DNA of 64,000 bases from Patescibacteria group bacterium (GTDB lineage: Bacteria > Patescibacteriota > Patescibacteriia > CAIXNZ01): positions 39,834 to 103,833 of the forward strand of contig JAQTMG010000003.1 of assembly GCA_028714455.1 (NCBI GenBank), in the 5' to 3' direction. The translations under genes and the position numbers were made by a program. Of the stretch, positions 5,030 through 56,878 are shown piece after piece. Each line of letters begins with the position of its first letter. The first letter of the stretch is position 1. The notes beneath the pieces are model-generated. The model did not search any database. It was not told the origin of the DNA and saw only the letters and a program-made list of their open reading frames with translations.

Positions 5030-5104
5030 CGCGGGGTAGAGCAGTGGCAGCTCGCCGGGCCCATAACCCGGAGGTCGCGGGTTCAAATCCCGCCCCCGCA
5101 ACCA
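5030..5104 (+). tRNA. Initiator tRNA-fMet (anticodon CAT)
   Basis: Cloverleaf with a C1:A72 mismatch, three G-C pairs in the anticodon stem, loop CCCATAA, T-arm GCGGG-TTCAAAT-CCCGC and an encoded CCA. It is near-identical in architecture to E. coli tRNA-fMet. Confidence 0.85.
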
Positions 5105-5307
5105 GATTCATGGTGGGGGTTTCCGCCGTAGGCGGACCCGCCTCTGGCGGGCAAATCCCGCCCCCGCAACCAGATTCATGGTGGGGGTTTCCGCCGTAGG
5201 CGGACCCGCCTCTGGCGGGCAAATCCCGCCCCCGCAACCAGATTCCTGGTGGGGGTTTCCGCCGTAGGCGGACCCGCCTCTGGCGGGCAAATCCCGCCCC
5301 CGCAACA
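5105..5307 (+). repeat. Three tandem 68-nt direct repeats, each ending in the last 20 nt of tRNA-fMet (AAATCCCGCCCCCGCAACCA)
   Basis: Units at 5105-5172, 5173-5240 and 5241-5307. The third has an A>C change and lacks the CCA. Each unit is GATTCATGGTGGGGGTTTCCGCCGTAGGCGGACCCGCCTCTGGCGGGC plus the tRNA 3' end. Confidence 0.9.
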
Positions 5308-5327
5308 ATGAAAATTAAAATTATTTA

Positions 5328-5400
5328 GATCCGGTAGCTCAGTTGGTAGAGCACCTGCCTTTTAAGCAGGGGGTCCTGGGTTCAATCCCCAGCCGGATCA
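5328..5400 (+). tRNA. tRNA-Lys (anticodon TTT)
   Basis: GATCCGG acceptor, GCTC/GAGC D-stem, anticodon loop CTTTTAA, T-arm CTGGG-TTCAATC-CCCAG; no CCA encoded. Confidence 0.9.
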
Positions 5401-5606
5401 TAGGTTAATGGCTTGCCAAGACTGGCAAGCTTTTTGCGACCCCCTGCTTTATCAAAGCTACACAAAGAAGTCCTGCCTGCCCGCCGTAACGAAGTGAAGG
5501 CGGGGGTTCAATCCCCAGCCGGATCATAGGTTAATAGCTTGCCAAGACTGGCAAGCTTTTTGCGACCCCCTGCTTTATCAAAGCTACACAAAGAAGTCCT
5601 GCCTGC
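5401..5606 (+). repeat. Duplicated ~100-nt segment (tRNA-Lys 3' half + 80-nt downstream unit containing a terminator hairpin)
   Basis: The 80-nt unit TAGGTTAAT(G/A)GCTTGCCAAGACTGGCAAGCTTTTTGCGACCCCCTGCTTTATCAAAGCTACACAAAGAAGTCCTGCCTGCC appears at 5401-5480 and 5527-5606. Between the two copies a second copy of the tRNA 3' end (GGGGTTCAATCCCCAGCCGGATCA, 5503-5526) is preceded by a CCCGCC..GGCGGG hairpin. Confidence 0.85.
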
Positions 5607-5637
5607 CTCTAGCGAAGGCAGACCGGATTATTATAAG

Positions 5638-5664: not shown

Positions 5665-5751
5665 ATATTGACATTATCAAAATAATGTGCTAGAATTATT
5701 AATTAGTTGACAGAATCAAAACCAAAAATAAAATCCAAAAGGAGGGAAAAG

Positions 5752-6456
5752 ATGAGGACATTTACCGTAATCACTTCTTTAACCGACGGAGTTCTGAAGC
5801 ATGAAATTTTCGATTTCCTCATCCCCAAAAAGAATGAGGAACGGGCGGGAGAATGGTTTCTCCCTTTCGGTTCCACGCGGATTCCTCTTGGCAAGAGGGA
5901 TCTGGACAAGCTCCTGCAAACTGGCTGGAAGAAAATCCCGTGTTCTGCCAGGGGTGAGAGAAGGTGGAGCGGCCAGAAATCGGCCCAACCGCTGATCTGC
6001 GACAAGTGCGGAGAAAAATATGGCAACTGGCAGCCTTACAAAATCGGATTCGAATGCTTTCACCCGGCAAACGGCGAGATGGTCTTGAGCGACAAAATCA
6101 TCAGTAACGCCTTCTGCCTAAAACTGCGCGACAAGTACACGGAAGAGTACAGCGGTAAGCTTCTGCTTGTCGCGCCTGACAAGGAGCAGGAGGAAGCGCT
6201 CATTCACTGGGATCTCTCGGATCATGCGGCGCTCTTCGAAGATGGGCGAATCATAGCCCAAGACACCTGGCCGTTTCGAACCAACCATTATCTCGTTGCT
6301 CTGAAGCCAGGTTCGAGCCTGCCCGCCATCAAGTCTCATGAACAATCCGCCGCTTACACTCTGGTTCTTTCTTTCGACGGCAACAGCGTCCACGTGACCA
6401 AAAAAGAGTTGGTTGCGAGACAAGAAGTCTCTGACCAGGCTCAAATCTCGGCCTAA
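5752..6456 (+). CDS. Hypothetical protein with Cys cluster (CDKCGEKYGNW..ECFHP), in a GC-rich island
   Basis: AGGAGGG RBS before ATG 5752. Local GC content is clearly above the window average and no known family was recognised. The ORF track gives a longer form from 5707. Confidence 0.5.
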   Translation: MRTFTVITSLTDGVLKHEIFDFLIPKKNEERAGEWFLPFGSTRIPLGKRDLDKLLQTGWKKIPCSARGERRWSGQKSAQPLICDKCGEKYGNWQPYKIGFECFHPANGEMVLSDKIISNAFCLKLRDKYTEEYSGKLLLVAPDKEQEEALIHWDLSDHAALFEDGRIIAQDTWPFRTNHYLVALKPGSSLPAIKSHEQSAAYTLVLSFDGNSVHVTKKELVARQEVSDQAQISA

Positions 6457-10025: not shown

Positions 10026-11189
10026 ATGCAATGGCCCAAAATCGCCTTAACAACCATTGGCTGCAAGCTTAATCAATCAGAAATTCAAGATTTAAAGCAG
10101 GATCTAATTGATGCCGGTTATCTTATTGTTGATAAAAATGAACCGCACGATTTGCATATTATCAACGCCTGTTCAATTACTCACGGCGCCGAACAAATCA
10201 CCCGCCAAAAAATCCGCGAAGCTAAATCTAAAAATCCAAAACTTCAAATATTTGTCATGGGTTGTTTGAATCAACCAATTCCAGAAATCAATAAAGTTTT
10301 CAAAAACAAAAAGGAGGTTTTAAAATTTATCAAAAAAATATATAAAAATACCCAAATTCGTAATTCAAAATTCATAATTCATAATTCCAGAACAAGAGTT
10401 TTGATCAAGGTCCAAGACGGCTGTAACTTCAATTGTGCCTATTGCATCATTACCAAATTCCGCGGCCAATCAAAATCAATTTCTCCAAATAAAATAATCT
10501 CTCAAATCAAACAAAAAGAAAAACAAGGCGCCAAAGAAATCGTTTTAGTCGGCGTTAATATTTTGCTTTATAAATTTGGCACAACCGATTTAGCCGCGCT
10601 GGTTAAAAGAATTTTAGATGAAACAAAAATCCCACGCATCAGATTCAGCTCGCTTGACCCTCGCCTCGTCAATCCCACTTTCCTCAATTTATTTAGGAAT
10701 AAACGCATCTGCCCACATTTGCATTTATCTTTGCAATCCGGCTCCAATAAAATTCTCAAATTAATGAACCGCCATTATACCGCGCAAAGATATTTACAAA
10801 TTATCAAAACCGCCAGAAAAATAAATCCGCTGACTTCAATAACAACGGATATAATTATTGGCTTCCCCGGCGAAACAGAAAAAGATTTTCAAGATACCTT
10901 AAATCTGGTCAAAAAAATAGATTTTCTTAAAATTCACATCTTCCCCTATTCAGCAAGAGGCGCGAGTAAAGAGCAAGGGCAAATTAACGAGAGCGTTAAA
11001 AAACAAAGATTTATAAAATTAAATAAACTCGCCGAAAAACAAAGCCAAAAATTTCTCAAAAAAATGAAAGACAAAATCATGCCCGTGCTTTTTGAACAAA
11101 AAGAAACCGGCTACACGCCAAATTACATTTTGGTCAAAAAGAAAACAAAACAAAATCTGGCGAATAAAATTATAAATGTGAAAATATAA
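10026..11189 (+). CDS. Radical-SAM methylthiotransferase (MiaB/RimO/MtaB family; MtaB-like)
   Basis: N-terminal MTTase domain (IALTTIGCKLNQSE) and a radical-SAM CxxxCxxC motif (GCNFNCAYCII). The tract IRNSKFIIHNS, encoded by an AATTCAT repeat, looks like an insertion. Confidence 0.75.
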   Translation: MQWPKIALTTIGCKLNQSEIQDLKQDLIDAGYLIVDKNEPHDLHIINACSITHGAEQITRQKIREAKSKNPKLQIFVMGCLNQPIPEINKVFKNKKEVLKFIKKIYKNTQIRNSKFIIHNSRTRVLIKVQDGCNFNCAYCIITKFRGQSKSISPNKIISQIKQKEKQGAKEIVLVGVNILLYKFGTTDLAALVKRILDETKIPRIRFSSLDPRLVNPTFLNLFRNKRICPHLHLSLQSGSNKILKLMNRHYTAQRYLQIIKTARKINPLTSITTDIIIGFPGETEKDFQDTLNLVKKIDFLKIHIFPYSARGASKEQGQINESVKKQRFIKLNKLAEKQSQKFLKKMKDKIMPVLFEQKETGYTPNYILVKKKTKQNLANKIINVKI

Positions 11190-11191
11190 AA

Positions 11192-11322
11192 GGCGAAAAC
11201 GGACATTATCGTCGTTGTAGAGACGGGGCATACCCTGTCTCTACGTCATGTATCATATGACGATAATGTAGAGACGCGGTGCACCGCGTCTCTACGGCGT
11301 TTTACGCCGTCCGTTTTCGCCC
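11192..11322. repeat. Structured palindromic repeat (REP/MITE-like), copy 1, double-core
   Basis: Outer 13-bp inverted repeat GGCGAAAACGGAC..GTCCGTTTTCGCC enclosing two 28-bp palindromes: GTAGAGACGGGGCATACCCTGTCTCTAC (11217-11244) and GTAGAGACGCGGTGCACCGCGTCTCTAC (11268-11295). Confidence 0.85.
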
Positions 11323-11405
11323 AAATAACTTTTATAAAAGAAAAACCCCGCACCTTTTGCTAGCAAAAGGTGAGGGGCAAAGTGTACAAGGTACAAGAAT
11401 CAAAG

Positions 11406-11966
11406 TTACGAAACTACGGAACGAGCGCGCAGAATGTCACCGGCACTGCCAGGGTCGCAGCAGCCGATGTACAATCCGCCACCGCCCCATCCCACGCCCG
11501 GCACACCACCATCGGAATCGCAGGAGCCAGAACAGAGTGTCACGTTGTTGATATCAAGATGCTTTCCTGCCGGCCGGTTCCAGTTATAGAAGAGCTCCAT
11601 GACAAGGCGCTCTTCCAGGGTGATGCCGTTGATGCCGCGTTTCTCGCACTCTTTGGCAGAGAGGTTCTTGTTTTCCTTGTCTGCCTCAATTCGGTCTCGC
11701 AGCCAGATGGCATAGGTCTTGTCGGTCTTGCGTACCGAAATAACGGTGTTAAGGTCATCTCTGTACTTCCATGACGTGAAGTGCTCTTTGCACTTATCAA
11801 AGAGACGGTTTGCGGTCAGGCCTGCGGCCATGATGAGTAGCCAGTTGAAGCCCTTCCGCTTTCCGGGCAGAACGATCTTTGAGAAGTCGGCCTTGATGCC
11901 GAAAACTTCTTTGTAGAAACGCTGCCATTCGGCGATCAACTTACTATATTTCCCCTTTTCCGGCAT
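11406..11966 (-). CDS. Hypothetical protein with Gly/Cys-rich C-terminus, in a GC-rich region (likely horizontally acquired)
   Basis: GGAGGG RBS before ATG 11966. Local GC content is far above neighbours. The C-terminus reads CSGSCDSDGGVPGVGWGGGGLYIGCCDPGS. A terminator hairpin GCACCTTTTGC-TAG-CAAAAGGTG lies at 11346-11375. Confidence 0.5.
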   Translation of the reverse strand: MPEKGKYSKLIAEWQRFYKEVFGIKADFSKIVLPGKRKGFNWLLIMAAGLTANRLFDKCKEHFTSWKYRDDLNTVISVRKTDKTYAIWLRDRIEADKENKNLSAKECEKRGINGITLEERLVMELFYNWNRPAGKHLDINNVTLCSGSCDSDGGVPGVGWGGGGLYIGCCDPGSAGDILRARSVVS

Positions 11967-12118
11967 GAACAGTTCCCTCCTTTCGCTTTTGGGATTTTTG
12001 CGTTTTGCCTCTAGGTAACTCGTTTTCGTTTTATAGTCAAAGAAATTTTAATGTTCAGGAATAGTTAAATTTAGCACCTTCTCATTTGAATGTCAAGATA
12101 GAAAAATATTCCAATTCC

Positions 12119-17366: not shown

Positions 17367-17506
17367 GTCTTCCTCCTTGCGCCAAACACGGGCTTTTGCG
17401 CGTGTTTGGGGCGTCTTGAAATGAACATTTACTTTGTCTGTCAAAGTAATCCGCCACCTTGGTCGGATAGTTCAAGTTAACAAAAAAATGGTGTTTTTGT
17501 CAATAG

Positions 17507-17590
17507 GGGCGAAAACGCTTTAACGAAAGTAGAGACGCGGTGCACCGCGTCTCTACAATATAAAATAATTTTTTATAAGCGTTTTCGCCC
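17507..17590. repeat. Structured palindromic repeat, copy 2
   Basis: GGGGCGAAAACGC..GCGTTTTCGCCC outer IR around core GTAGAGACGCGGTGCACCGCGTCTCTAC (17529-17556). Confidence 0.85.
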
Positions 17591-17604
17591 AGCCTCAACA
17601 AATT

Positions 17605-33991: not shown

Positions 33992-34203
33992 AGTATTATG
34001 AACCACGAAATTTTTTCACGAAAGGCACTAAAATTTCGTGTTATTTAGTGAATTATTTTCGTGTTTCAGATATCAATATTTATAAATCCAATTTATCAAA
34101 AAAACCATAATAAATCAACCCAAAATAAAAAGTCCCGCCGCGAGTGCAACGGGACTTAAAATTGAATTTTTCAAAAGTTCAAAAACATCAAGATTTCAAG
34201 GGT

Positions 34204-34999
34204 TCAAAAACTGAACTTCCGAGATAGGACAACGCGCAAGTCGTCATCGGAGCAATCGACCAAGCCGCCGCTGACAATGAGGCCACCGGAACCAAAGACG
34301 CCGACACCGACGCGGTTGTCATTGGAAGCCGCCGTAGCACCCCAATGGTACCAGTCTTCCGCAATTCGCTCGCCGTTATTGACCATAAAAATGGTCAGGA
34401 TGGCTTCGGCAAAGGCTGCCTCATGACAACGTTCGTAGCCCGCGCCCAGTTCGGTTATCGCTTTTCCCTGCTCCACCCAATTCATGTTGGCGAACTGGCC
34501 GCGGAAGTTGATGAGGTAATAGCCGGTTTGGGGCCTGAAAGTCGCCCACTTGTCCTCGTCGCTCTCGAGCCACCAGTCGTCGTTGGCAAAGGTGTCAAAA
34601 CAGGGCTGTTCGGCCCTATTAACGCCGCGCTTTTCTCTCTGCTCGCGCAGAGAAAGGCCATTGATGTAAACTAGACGCCAATCTTCGCCTTGTTCATTCT
34701 CTTTAGCCGCGTGACGCAAGGTTGCCTTGGAATAGAGGACTTTATCGTCTTTTGGCGACTCCAGTCCCCAGACCCCGGCAGATTGCTTTGCGACAATAAC
34801 ATTATCCCTCCCAAAAAGACGTAAAATAAACTCCCAATCTGGATATTCCCTGGCCTCAAAGGGATTTTTGTGGTCAATCAATGCCTGCAGATGGTCCGTA
34901 TCCAAAGAACCTCGTTTGAGCTGCGAAAAAATTTCCGCCATTTGGTTAATCACCTTTTGACCTGCCCTTACGGACAAATCTTCCTGACGATCTTTCATC
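34204..34999 (-). CDS. Hypothetical protein in a strongly GC-rich island (likely horizontally acquired)
   Basis: GGAGG RBS before ATG 34999 (MKDRQEDLS..). GC content is far above flanks and no family was recognised. A terminator hairpin GTCCCG..CGGGAC lies at 34136-34162. Confidence 0.45.
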
Positions 35000-35247
35000 G
35001 CCTTTCCTCCTTTGCCTTTTTCAAGGCATGTTTTTTCGCCCATACGGACGATGTTTTGTGGTTAGTTAACCAGTTACGCGTTTTTATCTCAAATTTACAA
35101 AGAACTTATTGATTTAAAAATGTATCACTTTTTTATAAAGATGTCAATTAATACAGATGCGCTAACTAGCTGGATCGCGCGAACACTTTAGTGTGAGCCA
35201 GTCTAGTCGACACTAAAGTGTCTCTGCGAGTAGTGGCGTAAACGCAA

Positions 35248-37794: not shown

Positions 37795-38460
37795 TTATTT
37801 TTTAATATCGTCAGTTAGTCGGGGATAATTCAAACTGGTATATTGCCAATTTTCAGGCAAGCCATGCTTCAAATGATTATAAACTGTATAATTATAATGA
37901 TGATCCCAGTCCCTTTGCTTTTTTAAATGATTTTGATGAAAGCGGATAAAGTGGTCGTAAAAAGATAATTGCCATTTAAATTTTGGGTAAGGACTGCTAT
38001 TGCCAAATTTTTTTATAAATTCTTCCTTATAATGTTCAAGGTTTATTTTCCTCTCATTAAAATCATCAAAATTCCCATTAAATAAATTAAGCAACCTCAT
38101 CCTCATCCTTCGTAGGCGAAACGACGTCGTTTCGCCTACGAAGAGCGGTGAATTTTGATTAATCGTATATCCCATCACAATATTAACATTGCGTGAAAAA
38201 TTTTCTTTTAACGATTTGATTATTTTTGAAATATTATATTGGTTATTAGGTTCAATTATTAAATTAATATGATCATAAATTATGGAAAAGGCATACAGCT
38301 TAAATCCCTTTAATTGTTTACAAATCCCTAAATTCTCAATAAACAAGCTGCAAAAAATCGTCTCTTTAAAATATGGGAAATTATTCTTCGTCTTGATTAC
38401 GATGTAATATATAGCACCTGGAAAATATATCCGCTTAGAATAATTTTTGTGCAATTTCAT
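37795..38460 (-). CDS. IS200/IS605-family Y1 transposase-like protein (RAYT-like, HuH degenerate) carrying an in-frame palindromic insertion
   Basis: N-terminal YYIVIKTKNNFPYF, a degenerate HuH (DHINLI) and a C-terminal SFYDHFIR..Y motif shared with the paralogs at 53983 and 56300. A 38-bp perfect palindrome CTTCGTAGGCGAAACGACG/CGTCGTTTCGCCTACGAAG at 38111-38148 is translated in-frame (SFRLRRMRMR). Confidence 0.5.
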   Translation of the reverse strand: MKLHKNYSKRIYFPGAIYYIVIKTKNNFPYFKETIFCSLFIENLGICKQLKGFKLYAFSIIYDHINLIIEPNNQYNISKIIKSLKENFSRNVNIVMGYTINQNSPLFVGETTSFRLRRMRMRLLNLFNGNFDDFNERKINLEHYKEEFIKKFGNSSPYPKFKWQLSFYDHFIRFHQNHLKKQRDWDHHYNYTVYNHLKHGLPENWQYTSLNYPRLTDDIKK

Positions 38461-43912: not shown

Positions 43913-43999
43913 GGGGCGAAAACGCTTTCACGTAAAAAACGCTGCCGTAGAGACAGGGTATACCCTGTCTCTACTTTTTATTCAAGGCGTTTTCGCCCC
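43913..43999. repeat. Structured palindromic repeat, copy 3
   Basis: GGGGCGAAAACGC..GCGTTTTCGCCCC outer IR around core GTAGAGACAGGGTATACCCTGTCTCTAC (43947-43974). Confidence 0.85.
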
Positions 44000-44030: not shown

Positions 44031-45256
44031 TTAATATTTCCCAATATTTTTTACGTAAGTTCCTGCTTCGCCCGAATAACGAATCAAAAAAACGTCATAA
44101 AGAACCGCGTCTACCTCTTGCCACAAATTCTCGGCCGTTTCTCTAATAATGAAACACTGCATGCCGCTTAGCTTAAGATACAACGGCCAAATTTTTGTCT
44201 CAAAATCATCCTTTTGTTCAAGCGCTTTTTTTAGGTTAAAAATGGTCAGGCGCAAACGCAACTTAAACTTCCGAGTATTGCGCACCTGGCCATCAACCAC
44301 ATTCAGTCCTAACGTGTGCAGAATATGCCCTCGTCTGGCAAAATATGATTTATGCAAATAGTAGCGCTGATAATAGGCTCCTTTATTTTGCCACCAACCA
44401 TCTGGGTCAGGCGCCTCTTTCAGTTCATAACCCCTTTTAGCGATACGAAAAACCGCTGAAATAACGGGCGCATGCCACACAATGCAACCGCGATATTTCT
44501 CAATATCTTCCTGACCCGCTGGTTTCACAAAGTAATCGTCAGCGGAGGGATCATCTGGCCGTTCTTCGCCGCGCTCAATGTGTCTTTTTTTTGTTTCCGG
44601 CCAAAATTCTGGCGCTGTGATAAAAATGTTGTCCGCGTAACGTACGTAAGTACCCCTGATGTTCTTGGCTAGCTCGGAAAGCTCGTAATCAAAGGGTTCA
44701 AAACAAAAATCAAACAAGCGCGGGCTGGTTGGCGCGCCTTGTGGCAAACCAAAAGCCGGTAGCCCCTTTTTCTTTTGATTAAACCAGGTCGTCAAACAGG
44801 TCAAATAATAAGAGGCGTAATAACCGTACTTTTTTGACTTGAAAAAATTGAAGACCGCGCGACCGCTTGTCGAAGGAAAAGCATCCTTCACGTCAGTCGT
44901 AAAAACCGCCTGGTCTGCCTTAGCAATAGCCAATGCCGCCTCTTTGACTCCACCGCCAGAAAATCCATAGACATTTCTATGACGGTCCAGCGGCTCAAGA
45001 ATATTTTTGTTGACAGCCCGCTGAATTGTCATCAAATCAGGGTGCGGAATCTGTAAAATTCTTCTGCCGCCGCTTCTTTTAGCAATTGTAATGGTTGAAT
45101 AAAGCCATGGACTCCTGACAATTGCCGCCCACAAAATTCTACGGAATTTTTCGAAATCATTAAAAGGATAATTCAGTTCAGCGAACAAATACCAGGCTGC
45201 TTTTCTGCCTGATTCCCTTAATAAGGGATTTTTAATGCGCTCACGCGATTTCAACA
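44031..45256 (-). CDS. Stand-alone reverse transcriptase (retron/DRT-like; motif C = YADN)
   Basis: RT motifs in order: 1/2 RRILQIPHPDLMTIQRAV, A FTTDVKDAF, B' GLPQGAPTSPRLFD, C YVRYADNIF. The proposed start is TTG 45256, 8 nt after AGGAGG; the ORF track's ATG 45383 would add 42 aa lacking an RBS. GC content is elevated. No maturase, endonuclease or other fused domain was recognised. Confidence 0.75.
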
Positions 45257-45294
45257 ATATTATCACCTCCTTTCCATGTTTTTTGTTTTCAAAG

Positions 45295-45695
45295 AAAAGG
45301 GAGGGGTAAATTCCCCTCCCACCGCTGGTTACTCGCGAATCGCAAGCTGTGCGTGTACCGATCAAGAACCGGGTGATTTGCATATTGCCGTCAGAATTCT
45401 GACAGCCCCTTTCGGCTATTTTAGGATCTCTTAGGGTTCCGGCAATAAAGCTAACTGTCTTGATCTAATTTCGGATTTTAGGGTTAGGGAGGGGTGCAAG
45501 ATTTATACATTTACTTCAAGTTTTGGTTATCCCCTCTCCTTCTAATTAAACCGAATTACCGAGCCAGTTACCTTCGCCGAAAATTATCTAGAGAAGGATA
45601 CGCAGTTTATGTACCTAACTCAAGTTTCGGCTAATCCTTCTCTTTATCCTATTTGGCCTCAAAGCTCGCTAACCAGCGAATGATAATACTTTAGT
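45295..45695 (-). ncRNA. Candidate RT-associated structured ncRNA (about 380 nt) directly upstream of and co-oriented with the RT
   Basis: Minus-strand promoter-like TTGACT-17 nt-TAAAGT at 45716-45688. Two paralogous long hairpins have conserved loops (AAACTTGA..GTA.ATAAA) and different, individually complementary stems (GAGAAGGAT/ATCCTTCTC versus GGAGAGGGG/CCCCTCC). There is a 14-bp palindrome GTCAGAATTCTGAC. The 3' end is a GC-rich hairpin GGGAGGGG-AATTTA-CCCCTCCC followed by TTTTCTTTG just before the RT RBS. Confidence 0.4.
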
Positions 45696-53982: not shown

Positions 53983-54564
53983 TTAATATTCAATGAAATC
54001 TGTTTTAAAAATTGATTGATCACCGATTTCATAATTTCGCCAGGAAGAATAGGGATATTTTGAAATATCTTCAACTAAGCGAGCAGAAATCGGATTGTTG
54101 TGGATATAATTTAATTTTTCGTTAAATTTCTTGCCAGAATAGATATTAAAGTCGTAAAAACTGGGCTGCCAGATTCTCCTCATCCTCCGGGTAGCCAAGG
54201 CCCCTGCGCCTTGGCTTTTTAAGGGCAAGGCGTATGAGCCTTGCCTACCTATAAAAGAGATGGGTGGGTCTTGCCGACCCGACATGGAATCAAATAAATA
54301 TTCATTAATCAACCTGGAACTATATCCTTTCACCCCGTGCATTATTCTGGAAATGGTTAATTTCGGATTTTCAAAATAAACCAACAAATGGACATGGTCA
54401 GGCATAATACAATACCCATATATCTTCAAATTAAATTTTTTCCGATAATAATCGAGGTTATCTAAAAACAACCGACAGCATTTATCATCTGTAAAAAATT
54501 TTTGTCTGCCGTGTGTATTGGCCGTTACAAAATGGATATGACCCAAATCATTAAATCTGTGCAT
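53983..54564 (-). CDS. IS200/IS605-family Y1 transposase-like protein (RAYT-like) with in-frame structured insertion
   Basis: HuH motif MPDHVHLLV and C-terminal YDFNIY..NYIHNNPISARL (RAYT-like). A roughly 110-bp insert at 54178-54290 contains hairpins CCAAGGC..GCCTTGG and GGCAAGGC..GCCTTGCC and is translated in-frame (RRMRRIWQ..). Confidence 0.6.
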   Translation of the reverse strand: MHRFNDLGHIHFVTANTHGRQKFFTDDKCCRLFLDNLDYYRKKFNLKIYGYCIMPDHVHLLVYFENPKLTISRIMHGVKGYSSRLINEYLFDSMSGRQDPPISFIGRQGSYALPLKSQGAGALATRRMRRIWQPSFYDFNIYSGKKFNEKLNYIHNNPISARLVEDISKYPYSSWRNYEIGDQSIFKTDFIEY

Positions 54565-56299: not shown

Positions 56300-56878
56300 T
56301 TAATTTAAAATGTTAAATTCAACCGCCTCTTTGGGATTATCACGATCAAATTCCCAATTTACCGGATTATTGGCAATATATCCTTTTATCCGCGCGTAAT
56401 CTTCATCGTTTTTGATAATGTGTTCGTAATAATTATCTTGCCATTTGAAATCAAGGTTATTTTCATGGCATTTGCGCGTAACGGCACCTTTAAATGTATT
56501 AACGACAGACGATAATGATTTTGGTTTGACGTGGCCAAATTTATTCCGTGTAGAGACAGGGTATACCCTGTCTCTACAATTTTTTGCAAAATCATTTTCG
56601 TCGCATTCAATTTCAATTATCCCATGAACATGATTTGGCATGATTATCCAATCGTCCAATCTTATATTATTAAAATGCTTTGGTATCTCCAACCAACAAT
56701 CAAAAACGACTTTCCCAACCTCCGATAAATAAACATTATTATCCTTAATTTCACCCAAATCGTATATTCTGTCTTTGGTGCAAATTGTCACGAAATAAAA
56801 ACCTCCTTTGGCATAATCCCATTCCATCAAACGCATACTCGCCACGCGATATTTATTTTTAAAATATTCGTCCCCCAT
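56300..56878 (-). CDS. IS200/IS605-family Y1 transposase-like protein (RAYT-like) carrying a copy of the GTAGAGAC palindromic repeat in-frame
   Basis: HuH motif MPNHVHGII and C-terminal WQDNYYEHIIKNDEDYARIKGYIANNP (RAYT-like). The core GTAGAGACAGGGTATACCCTGTCTCTAC lies at 56549-56576 inside the ORF, translated RDRVYPVSTR. Confidence 0.6.
   Translation of the reverse strand: MGDEYFKNKYRVASMRLMEWDYAKGGFYFVTICTKDRIYDLGEIKDNNVYLSEVGKVVFDCWLEIPKHFNNIRLDDWIIMPNHVHGIIEIECDENDFAKNCRDRVYPVSTRNKFGHVKPKSLSSVVNTFKGAVTRKCHENNLDFKWQDNYYEHIIKNDEDYARIKGYIANNPVNWEFDRDNPKEAVEFNILN
56549..56576. repeat. Structured palindromic repeat core, copy 4 (intragenic)
   Basis: Identical to the core of copy 3; no outer GGGGCGAAAACG inverted repeat. 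Confidence 0.85.

Follow-up and report, generated by a model that had tools for sequence, protein, structure and literature searches.

A very probable diversity-generating retroelement target gene standing alone in a Patescibacteria genome

This report concerns a 64,000-nucleotide stretch of DNA from a Patescibacteria group bacterium (assembly GCA_028714455.1, contig JAQTMG010000003.1), hereafter called the window, and the gene at positions 11406-11966 on its minus strand. It is very probable that this gene is a target gene of a diversity-generating retroelement (DGR) of the Patescibacteria (Candidate Phyla Radiation, CPR) lineage, and that the Gly/Cys-rich tail of its 186-aa product is the variable region (VR) of such a target. 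The kind of system is already known; what is new is a stand-alone and previously unannotated CPR DGR variable-protein gene.

In those relatives where the parts are linked, the reverse transcriptase (RT) would copy the RNA of a nearby template repeat (TR) into cDNA, misincorporating opposite template adenines, and this cDNA would replace the last ~120 nt of the target gene, which form the VR. The rewriting would fall on AAY codons of the ligand-binding face of a domain with the C-type-lectin fold, and the A>G-biased mutagenesis of the clade would turn AAY mostly into GGY in the window VR. The window copy is a stand-alone derivative which has lost an N-terminal domain of ~45 aa and is served by a promoter-like site, a ribosome-binding site and a terminator of its own. 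The features of the gene are given below in window coordinates.

11406..11966, minus strand: coding sequence of 186 aa, very probably a DGR variable (target) protein with a divergent fold of the C-type-lectin kind, like that of the formylglycine-generating enzyme (FGE)
11409..11531, minus strand: probable VR, residues ~146-186, including the Gly/Cys/Asp/Ser-rich tail; aligns with the TRs of 31 relatives
11409..11432, minus strand: 3' end of the VR, constant and GC-rich (CTGCGCGCTCGTTCCGTAGTTTCG, coding for LRARSVVS), resembling an initiation of mutagenic homology (IMH) site and common to the TR 3' ends of the family
11378..11405, minus strand: spacer of 28 nt, rich in pyrimidines, 3' of the stop codon; CTTG/CTTT words recur in it every 8 nt
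11336..11377, minus strand: GC-rich inverted repeat (11346-11377) with a T-run, a predicted intrinsic terminator (fold of -25 kcal/mol; terminator-like call)
11967..12023, minus strand: untranslated in-frame sequence (TSYLEAKRKNPKSERRELF) left over from the end of the N-terminal domain of the family, by tblastn and frame translation
11976..11981, minus strand: Shine-Dalgarno AGGAGG, 9 nt 5' of the ATG and within the former coding sequence, from sequence and frame analysis
12068..12096, minus strand: promoter-like site TTGACA-17 nt-TAAATT with a TG extension, by consensus match only

The variable region and its templates in relatives

Homologues of the protein were taken from a large protein collection, and relatives of the gene from a scan of one genome per species. 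The species-representative set held 112 relatives, of which the best 80 were kept as loci, and locus counts are given over 83 related loci. In 31 of these 83 loci the ~120 nt at the 3' end of the gene have a second, imperfect copy in direct orientation, the template repeat, which lies 233-329 nt downstream in 30 and upstream in one. Over the 29 VR/TR pairs that align ungapped, 566 of 603 mismatches (94%) are at adenines of the second copy, and in the loci L003, L029 and L048 every mismatch falls at a TR adenine (28/28, 24/24 and 24/24). The substitution spectrum of the family is A>G 67%, A>T 20% and A>C 13%. An open reading frame (ORF) of ~350 aa follows the repeat and is an RT in each of the seven loci tested (Pfam RVT_1, E 1e-20 to 1e-26); TR and RT are both present in 29 loci. 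The VR/TR pairs of the family do show adenine bias and the downstream ORFs tested are RTs, and this VR/TR/RT pattern is the defining signature of a DGR.

The window gene was compared with these templates by aligning its last 150 nt to the 31 TRs, the reference being the TR consensus of the family and not the copy's own TR. At the 30 columns where the consensus has A, the window has A in 8, G in 20 and T in 2 (22/30 changed); at the 58 columns with another base it matches the consensus in 51 and differs in 7 (Fisher p = 1.2e-8 against the A columns). The template codon AAY (Asn) would have given mostly GGY (Gly) and also TGY (Cys), GAY (Asp) and AGY (Ser), which would explain the composition of the tail. 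The tail CSGSCDSDGGVPGVGWGGGGLYIGCCDPGS covers residues 145-174 and is followed by 12 further conserved residues (AGDILRARSVVS); hence the Gly/Cys-rich tail described in the first-pass annotation is present, but it is not the end of the protein.

The segment starting CTGCGCGCTCG, which encodes LRARSVVS, is common to the window VR and to the TR 3' ends, with L179 and R182 nearly invariant. Going by the definition of the IMH in PMC5758913, the stretch 11409-11432 is probably an IMH-like segment. In characterised DGRs a GC-rich inverted repeat lies downstream of the IMH, in the same place as the hairpin at 11346-11377 (PMC3240598; PMC5758913), and comparable hairpins are present 3' of most genes of the family. 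The ribosome-binding site and terminator hairpin which the gene had been said to own are found here as AGGAGG at 11976-11981 and as the 11346-11377 hairpin with its T-run.

The reading frame at the 5' end shows that the window copy is truncated and is without the family's N-terminal domain of ~45 aa, because a stop codon precedes the in-frame remnant TSYLEAKRKNPKSERRELF. The tblastn alignments of 15 homologues extend beyond the ATG of the window gene, and those that align through a KRxNPF-like motif reach 12005-12023. An independent assembly of the locus (L001, a Logan SRR22315509 contig of 4559 nt) encodes a protein identical to that of the window.

The protein family and its predicted fold

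In the large protein collection the 186-aa protein has 112 homologues, and all those which are named come from Patescibacteria (CPR). The members of this family (family 1 below) are mostly 225-240 aa long, the protein sizes spanning 186-240 aa, and the same metagenome-assembled genome (MAG) holds two more family-1 paralogues, P0005 and P0046, on other contigs. No significant match to the protein was obtained in Pfam, NCBIfam, PHROGs, PADLOC or the PDB sequences, and Foldseek against the PDB also gave no significant match. The Pfam FGE-sulfatase profile (PF03781) gave no match above noise, the similarity to FGE being one of fold only. The earlier statement that the product has no recognisable family is correct for the curated libraries and fails for the large protein collection.

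The tail aligns with a conserved core of the family, HLDxxNVTLCSGS..DG.VP.V.W....LRAR..VS. AlphaFold2 modelling with the 112-sequence alignment gave a mean predicted local distance difference test score (pLDDT) of 96.4 and a predicted template modelling score (pTM) of 0.93, with the tail forming beta-strands of pLDDT >90 throughout. In this predicted structure the VR is carried on a divergent, FGE-like C-type-lectin fold, and the 186-aa product is presumably a ligand-binding protein. No signal peptide was seen by eye in the protein, and no Sec signal.

The window neighbours do not recur beside the homologues, except one common gene ~7 kb away, and neither murG nor mtaB is the adjoining gene in any of the 83 homologue loci (0/83). 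The gene at 11406-11966 is an accessory, non-housekeeping gene, and the first-pass annotation was right in not placing it as a housekeeping gene at a conserved syntenic site.

The CPR DGRs form a clade of their own ('clade 2'; Roux et al. 2021, PMC8144416), and their targets are typically without a recognisable transmembrane or conserved domain, novel C-Lec variants being expected among them (PMC8144416). A 'CPR set' of DGRs was given by Wu et al. 2018, where a CPR-restricted DGR clade is described (PMC5758913). Family 1 resembles these systems in its host group, the target-TR-RT order of the relatives, a C-terminal VR of ~120 nt, at least 94% of TR/VR mismatches lying at adenines, targets without a transmembrane or Pfam domain and the C-type-lectin-like fold. 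It differs in that the window has the target gene only, without TR, RT or Avd, and in that this copy has no N-terminal domain. The family could not be mapped onto the published unnamed VR classes (UVR1-6), and a prior description of this exact family was not established. Paul et al. 2017 is reportedly another work on Patescibacteria/CPR DGRs, cited alongside the CPR DGR surveys.

Among the known variable proteins, TvpA of Treponema denticola (PDB 2y3c) and TaqVP of Thermus aquaticus (PDB 5vf4) carry the FGE-type C-type-lectin fold. The sequence identity to them is 13-16%, the Foldseek comparison is not significant, and family 1 is without a lipoprotein or Sec signal, is much smaller (186-240 aa) and has motifs of its own (RDRIEADEE, HLD and TLCSGS). 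Mtd of the Bordetella phage BPP-1 has an IMH and a GC-rich inverted repeat (PMC3240598; PMC5758913), whereas the inverted repeat in the window also resembles a plain intrinsic terminator. Further differences from the BPP-1 system are a CTTG-periodic spacer of 27-28 nt between stop codon and inverted repeat in family 1, the A>G-biased substitution spectrum (67%), and family-1 cassettes that show no avd between target and TR; a second family in the window, described below, has bAvd.

Composition, flanking elements and rival origins of the gene

Three other features of the window enter the comparison.

34204-35043, minus strand: gene of a second, distinct DGR-target family, 279 aa
44031-45383, minus strand: RT of 450 aa, retron-type and not DGR-type (Pfam RVT_1 6e-12; PADLOC RT_III-A 9e-34)
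11192..11321, no strand: palindromic element of 130 nt resembling miniature inverted-repeat transposable elements (MITE) or repetitive extragenic palindromes (REP), with an outer inverted repeat GGCGAAAAC and two inner GTAGAGAC..GTCTCTAC hairpins

The gene at 11406-11966 has a GC content of 0.53 and a third-position GC content (GC3) of 0.67, the highest GC3 among all genes called in the window, whose GC is 0.41. The corresponding values are 0.34 and 0.36 for the MtaB-like neighbour and 0.40 and 0.41 for murG, so that the GC contrast with both neighbours, already remarked on in the first-pass annotation, is real. The same is seen over the family: in 81/83 loci the gene has a higher GC content than its flanks (mean +11.5 points), and its GC3 exceeds that of the other genes of the same locus in 76/78 (mean +19 points). 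Mean GC3 is 0.61 for the scaffold, 0.67 for the VR, 0.35 for the adjacent RT and 0.41 for other genes, which places the target ~25 points above the RT of its own cassette (0.61 vs 0.35). At the third positions both C3 and G3 are up, C3 most, while A3 and T3 are down by equal amounts. Along the ORF the excess is flat; it has sharp edges at the start and stop codons, is gone within 100 nt of either end, and correlates with host GC3 (r = 0.61). The second target family (loci L085-L088; window 34204-35043) has the same GC3 excess.

Several explanations of this excess were considered. Adenine avoidance is ruled out, since A3 is lowered no more than T3 and C3 shows the largest rise, and a cassette-wide horizontal transfer is ruled out by the host-like GC3 of the RT. 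Regional gene conversion is unsupported, as the flanks show no excess, and expression-linked codon bias is unlikely, the L27 gene of the window having a GC3 of 0.41. The second-highest GC3 of the window (0.60) belongs to a 249-aa ORF at 5707-6456 on the plus strand, which has no Pfam match.

A CTTG-periodic spacer like the one after the stop codon of the window gene was found in 36 of 74 family loci against 40 of 726 control genes, an enrichment of ~9-fold, with a length of ~27-28 nt. It is also present 3' of the stop codon in the second target family (window 34170-34203, minus strand), before a GC-rich hairpin. Copies of the spacer or its complement within the TR/RT cassette scored no better than in shuffled controls, and a role of the spacer as target-site element is conjectural. 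That the GC3 excess and the spacer are functional requirements or by-products of retrohoming in the CPR clade is a rather unlikely idea, which could take the form, for example, of a target-recognition element or of recombination or repair working along the entire target ORF. Were this link to retrohoming true, unlinked copies such as that of the window would be kept as trans targets. No mention of the ORF-confined GC3 excess or of the CTTG-periodic spacer was found in the two published DGR surveys searched.

The palindromic element at 11192-11321 folds as DNA with -53 kcal/mol (z -12.9). It is a complete unit, lying with its full length downstream of the terminator at a distance of 24 nt, in a convergent intergenic gap; no copy of it occurs upstream of the gene, and the gene is not bracketed. 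Further copies are at 17506-17591 and 43913-43999, and the hairpin alone is at 56550-56577. The first-pass annotation had connected the gene with a repeat copy, as at 16.9 kb and 44 kb; the repeat and its copies are real, but the element is a neighbour whose link to the gene is unproven.

Members of the element family have terminal inverted repeats GGGGCGAAAACG around a GTAGAGAC(N12)GTCTCTAC hairpin, and three IS200-like Y1_Tnp genes (37795-38460, 53983-54564 and 56300-56878) could mobilise them. The retron-type RT at 44031-45383 adjoins one of the MITE-like copies. The L001 contig stops 77 nt past the stop codon of the gene, where the hairpin and the repeat lie; short-read assemblies evidently break at this repeat. 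Rfam finds nothing at the element and two tRNAs only in the window. Tandem repeats of 68 nt x3 (5077-5306) and 126 nt x2 (5378-5607) run across parts of these tRNA genes (5030-5101 and 5328-5400), and the repeats in 5030-5607 look like partial tRNA duplications.

The first-pass annotation had taken the gene for a single-gene GC-rich island of foreign origin, that is, a horizontally acquired gene, GC-richer than its surroundings, which was delivered or fixed beside a REP/MITE-like repeat. The GC of 0.53 against 0.41 for the window, the lack of synteny with relatives, the truncated 5' end, the MITE-like element 24 nt past the terminator with other copies beside the retron-type RT and an unknown ORF, and the three IS200-like Y1 transposase genes in the window are in line with this. 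However, the GC3 excess is a trait of the family (76/78 loci, mean +19 points) which follows the GC3 of the host (r = 0.61) and stops within 100 nt of the ORF ends, and the RT of the same cassette is without it (0.35, host genes having 0.41). The gene is not enclosed by the repeat element, which lies outside it, and the start of the same element sits at the same place beside the homologue in L002, a locus of another genus, because of which the element appears to be old and not the scar of a recent delivery. Such an origin is therefore improbable. The chance is smaller still that the gene encodes an FGE-like enzyme or an ordinary lectin of fixed sequence, sharing with DGR targets the fold only: the Pfam FGE-sulfatase profile does not match, adenine-biased VR/TR pairs and then RTs are found in 29-31 loci of the same family, and the window VR has the same column-specific pattern. 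The last proposal, to which hardly any credence can be given, is that of a small secreted factor or the precursor of a ribosomally synthesised and post-translationally modified peptide, with the Gly/Cys C-terminus as core peptide and the adjoining radical-SAM enzyme perhaps acting on it. The tail is indeed Gly/Cys-rich and a radical-SAM gene (10026-11189) does adjoin, but the predicted structure places the tail as beta-strands (pLDDT >90) inside a confidently folded globular domain (pLDDT 96), against the precursor-like tail of the first-pass annotation. Moreover, 12 conserved residues follow the tail, which aligns with the conserved core; the protein is of 186-240 aa and has no signal peptide by eye; and the Gly/Cys content is explained by the change of AAY to GGY and TGY. 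The radical-SAM neighbour has the UPF0004 and Radical_SAM domains, as MiaB/MtaB tRNA methylthiotransferases do, is convergently oriented and is absent from all homologue loci.

Rewriting in trans or a frozen copy

Because no TR-adjacent DGR RT lies in the window, the copy preferred here as a DGR target is classed with the unlinked (orphan) targets rather than with complete DGRs. Non-adjacent and remote DGR targets are documented (PMC5758913). In family 1, 30 of the 66 loci whose flanks reach 3 kb or more on each side carry no TR and no RT, and because ~45% of the copies are thus without a nearby TR or RT, surveys which demand an adjacent RT miss them.

The closest relative, L002, is likewise unlinked and belongs to another genus (68% amino-acid and 79% nucleotide identity). 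Its 3' flank is homologous to that of the window through the terminator, where the region 11336-11377 is ~88% identical, into the first bases of the GGCGAAAAC inverted-repeat element. The VRs of the two copies differ at 16 of 31 adenine columns and at 8 of 57 other columns, and the scaffolds at 25% of nucleotides. The dN/dS ratio is ~0.25 in the scaffold, indicating purifying selection, and ~1 in the VR; the dS of the VR lies below that of the scaffold, as expected because silent positions get reset from the template. Since the change in the VR is adenine-directed even against an unlinked relative, rewriting may have continued, in trans, after the unlinked ancestor split.

A separate case is offered by the second target gene at 34204-35043, whose product shares a small N-terminal domain with family 1. 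Its relatives (L085/L086 6001-8725 and L087 4861-8801) have bAvd, TR and RT, and TR adenines account for 19/20 and 11/11 of the mismatches. The window from 32.5 to 41.8 kb is collinear with the relative L085 over ten genes, and where L085 has a 2-kb Avd-TR-RT module between the target and an epimerase gene, the window has 197 nt instead; therefore this lineage has lost at least one DGR engine. Among the loci studied, L017 (8001-8582 and 10263-10844) and L087 (4861-5730 and 6001-6798) have two target copies which flank or precede the RT, and the RT of L087 (7673-8801) lies in two ORFs, which may be a frameshift.

On the sequence comparisons, the proposal that a cassette at another place in the genome rewrites the copy at 11406-11966 in trans, or did so until recently, has a slightly better than even chance. 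The points that weigh against it are those which favour a frozen fossil, i.e. a descendant of a DGR target whose cognate TR and RT were lost from the genome, leaving a protein fixed in specificity or decaying, and this outcome falls a little short of even. The loss of the Avd-TR-RT module at the syntenic site of the second target gene is the main argument. No TR was found in the 64-kb window (blastn-short of the gene and self-comparison of the window), and no DGR-type RT, tblastn with seven family RTs giving weak matches to the RT at 44 kb only. A degenerate TR pattern had 0 matches in the JGI metagenomes, a collection probably without the source organism; the best 120 of 7845 family-RT matches include none from the known contigs of the source MAG, which is weak evidence; and the copy is truncated at its 5' end. 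On the other hand, the ORF is intact with a promoter-like site, a ribosome-binding site and a terminator, its scaffold is under constraint (dN/dS ~0.25), and conservation extends to the IMH-like end, spacer and hairpin. The divergence from the unlinked L002 is adenine-specific, with the non-adenine VR positions better conserved than the scaffold, and the two further family-1 paralogues on other contigs of the MAG could hold the cassette.

These results bear on how such genes are to be read. The Gly/Cys-rich C-terminal tail is explained by the mechanism and is not to be mistaken for a peptide precursor. The second target gene, with its Avd-TR-RT module lost at a syntenic site, is a clear-cut case of a DGR decaying in a reduced genome. 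Family 1, with more than 100 proteins in the large collection and relatives at 112 sites of the species-representative genome set, has no Pfam, NCBIfam or PHROG model, and our study moves this unannotated "hypothetical protein" family to an identified class, that of DGR variable proteins with a divergent C-type-lectin fold.
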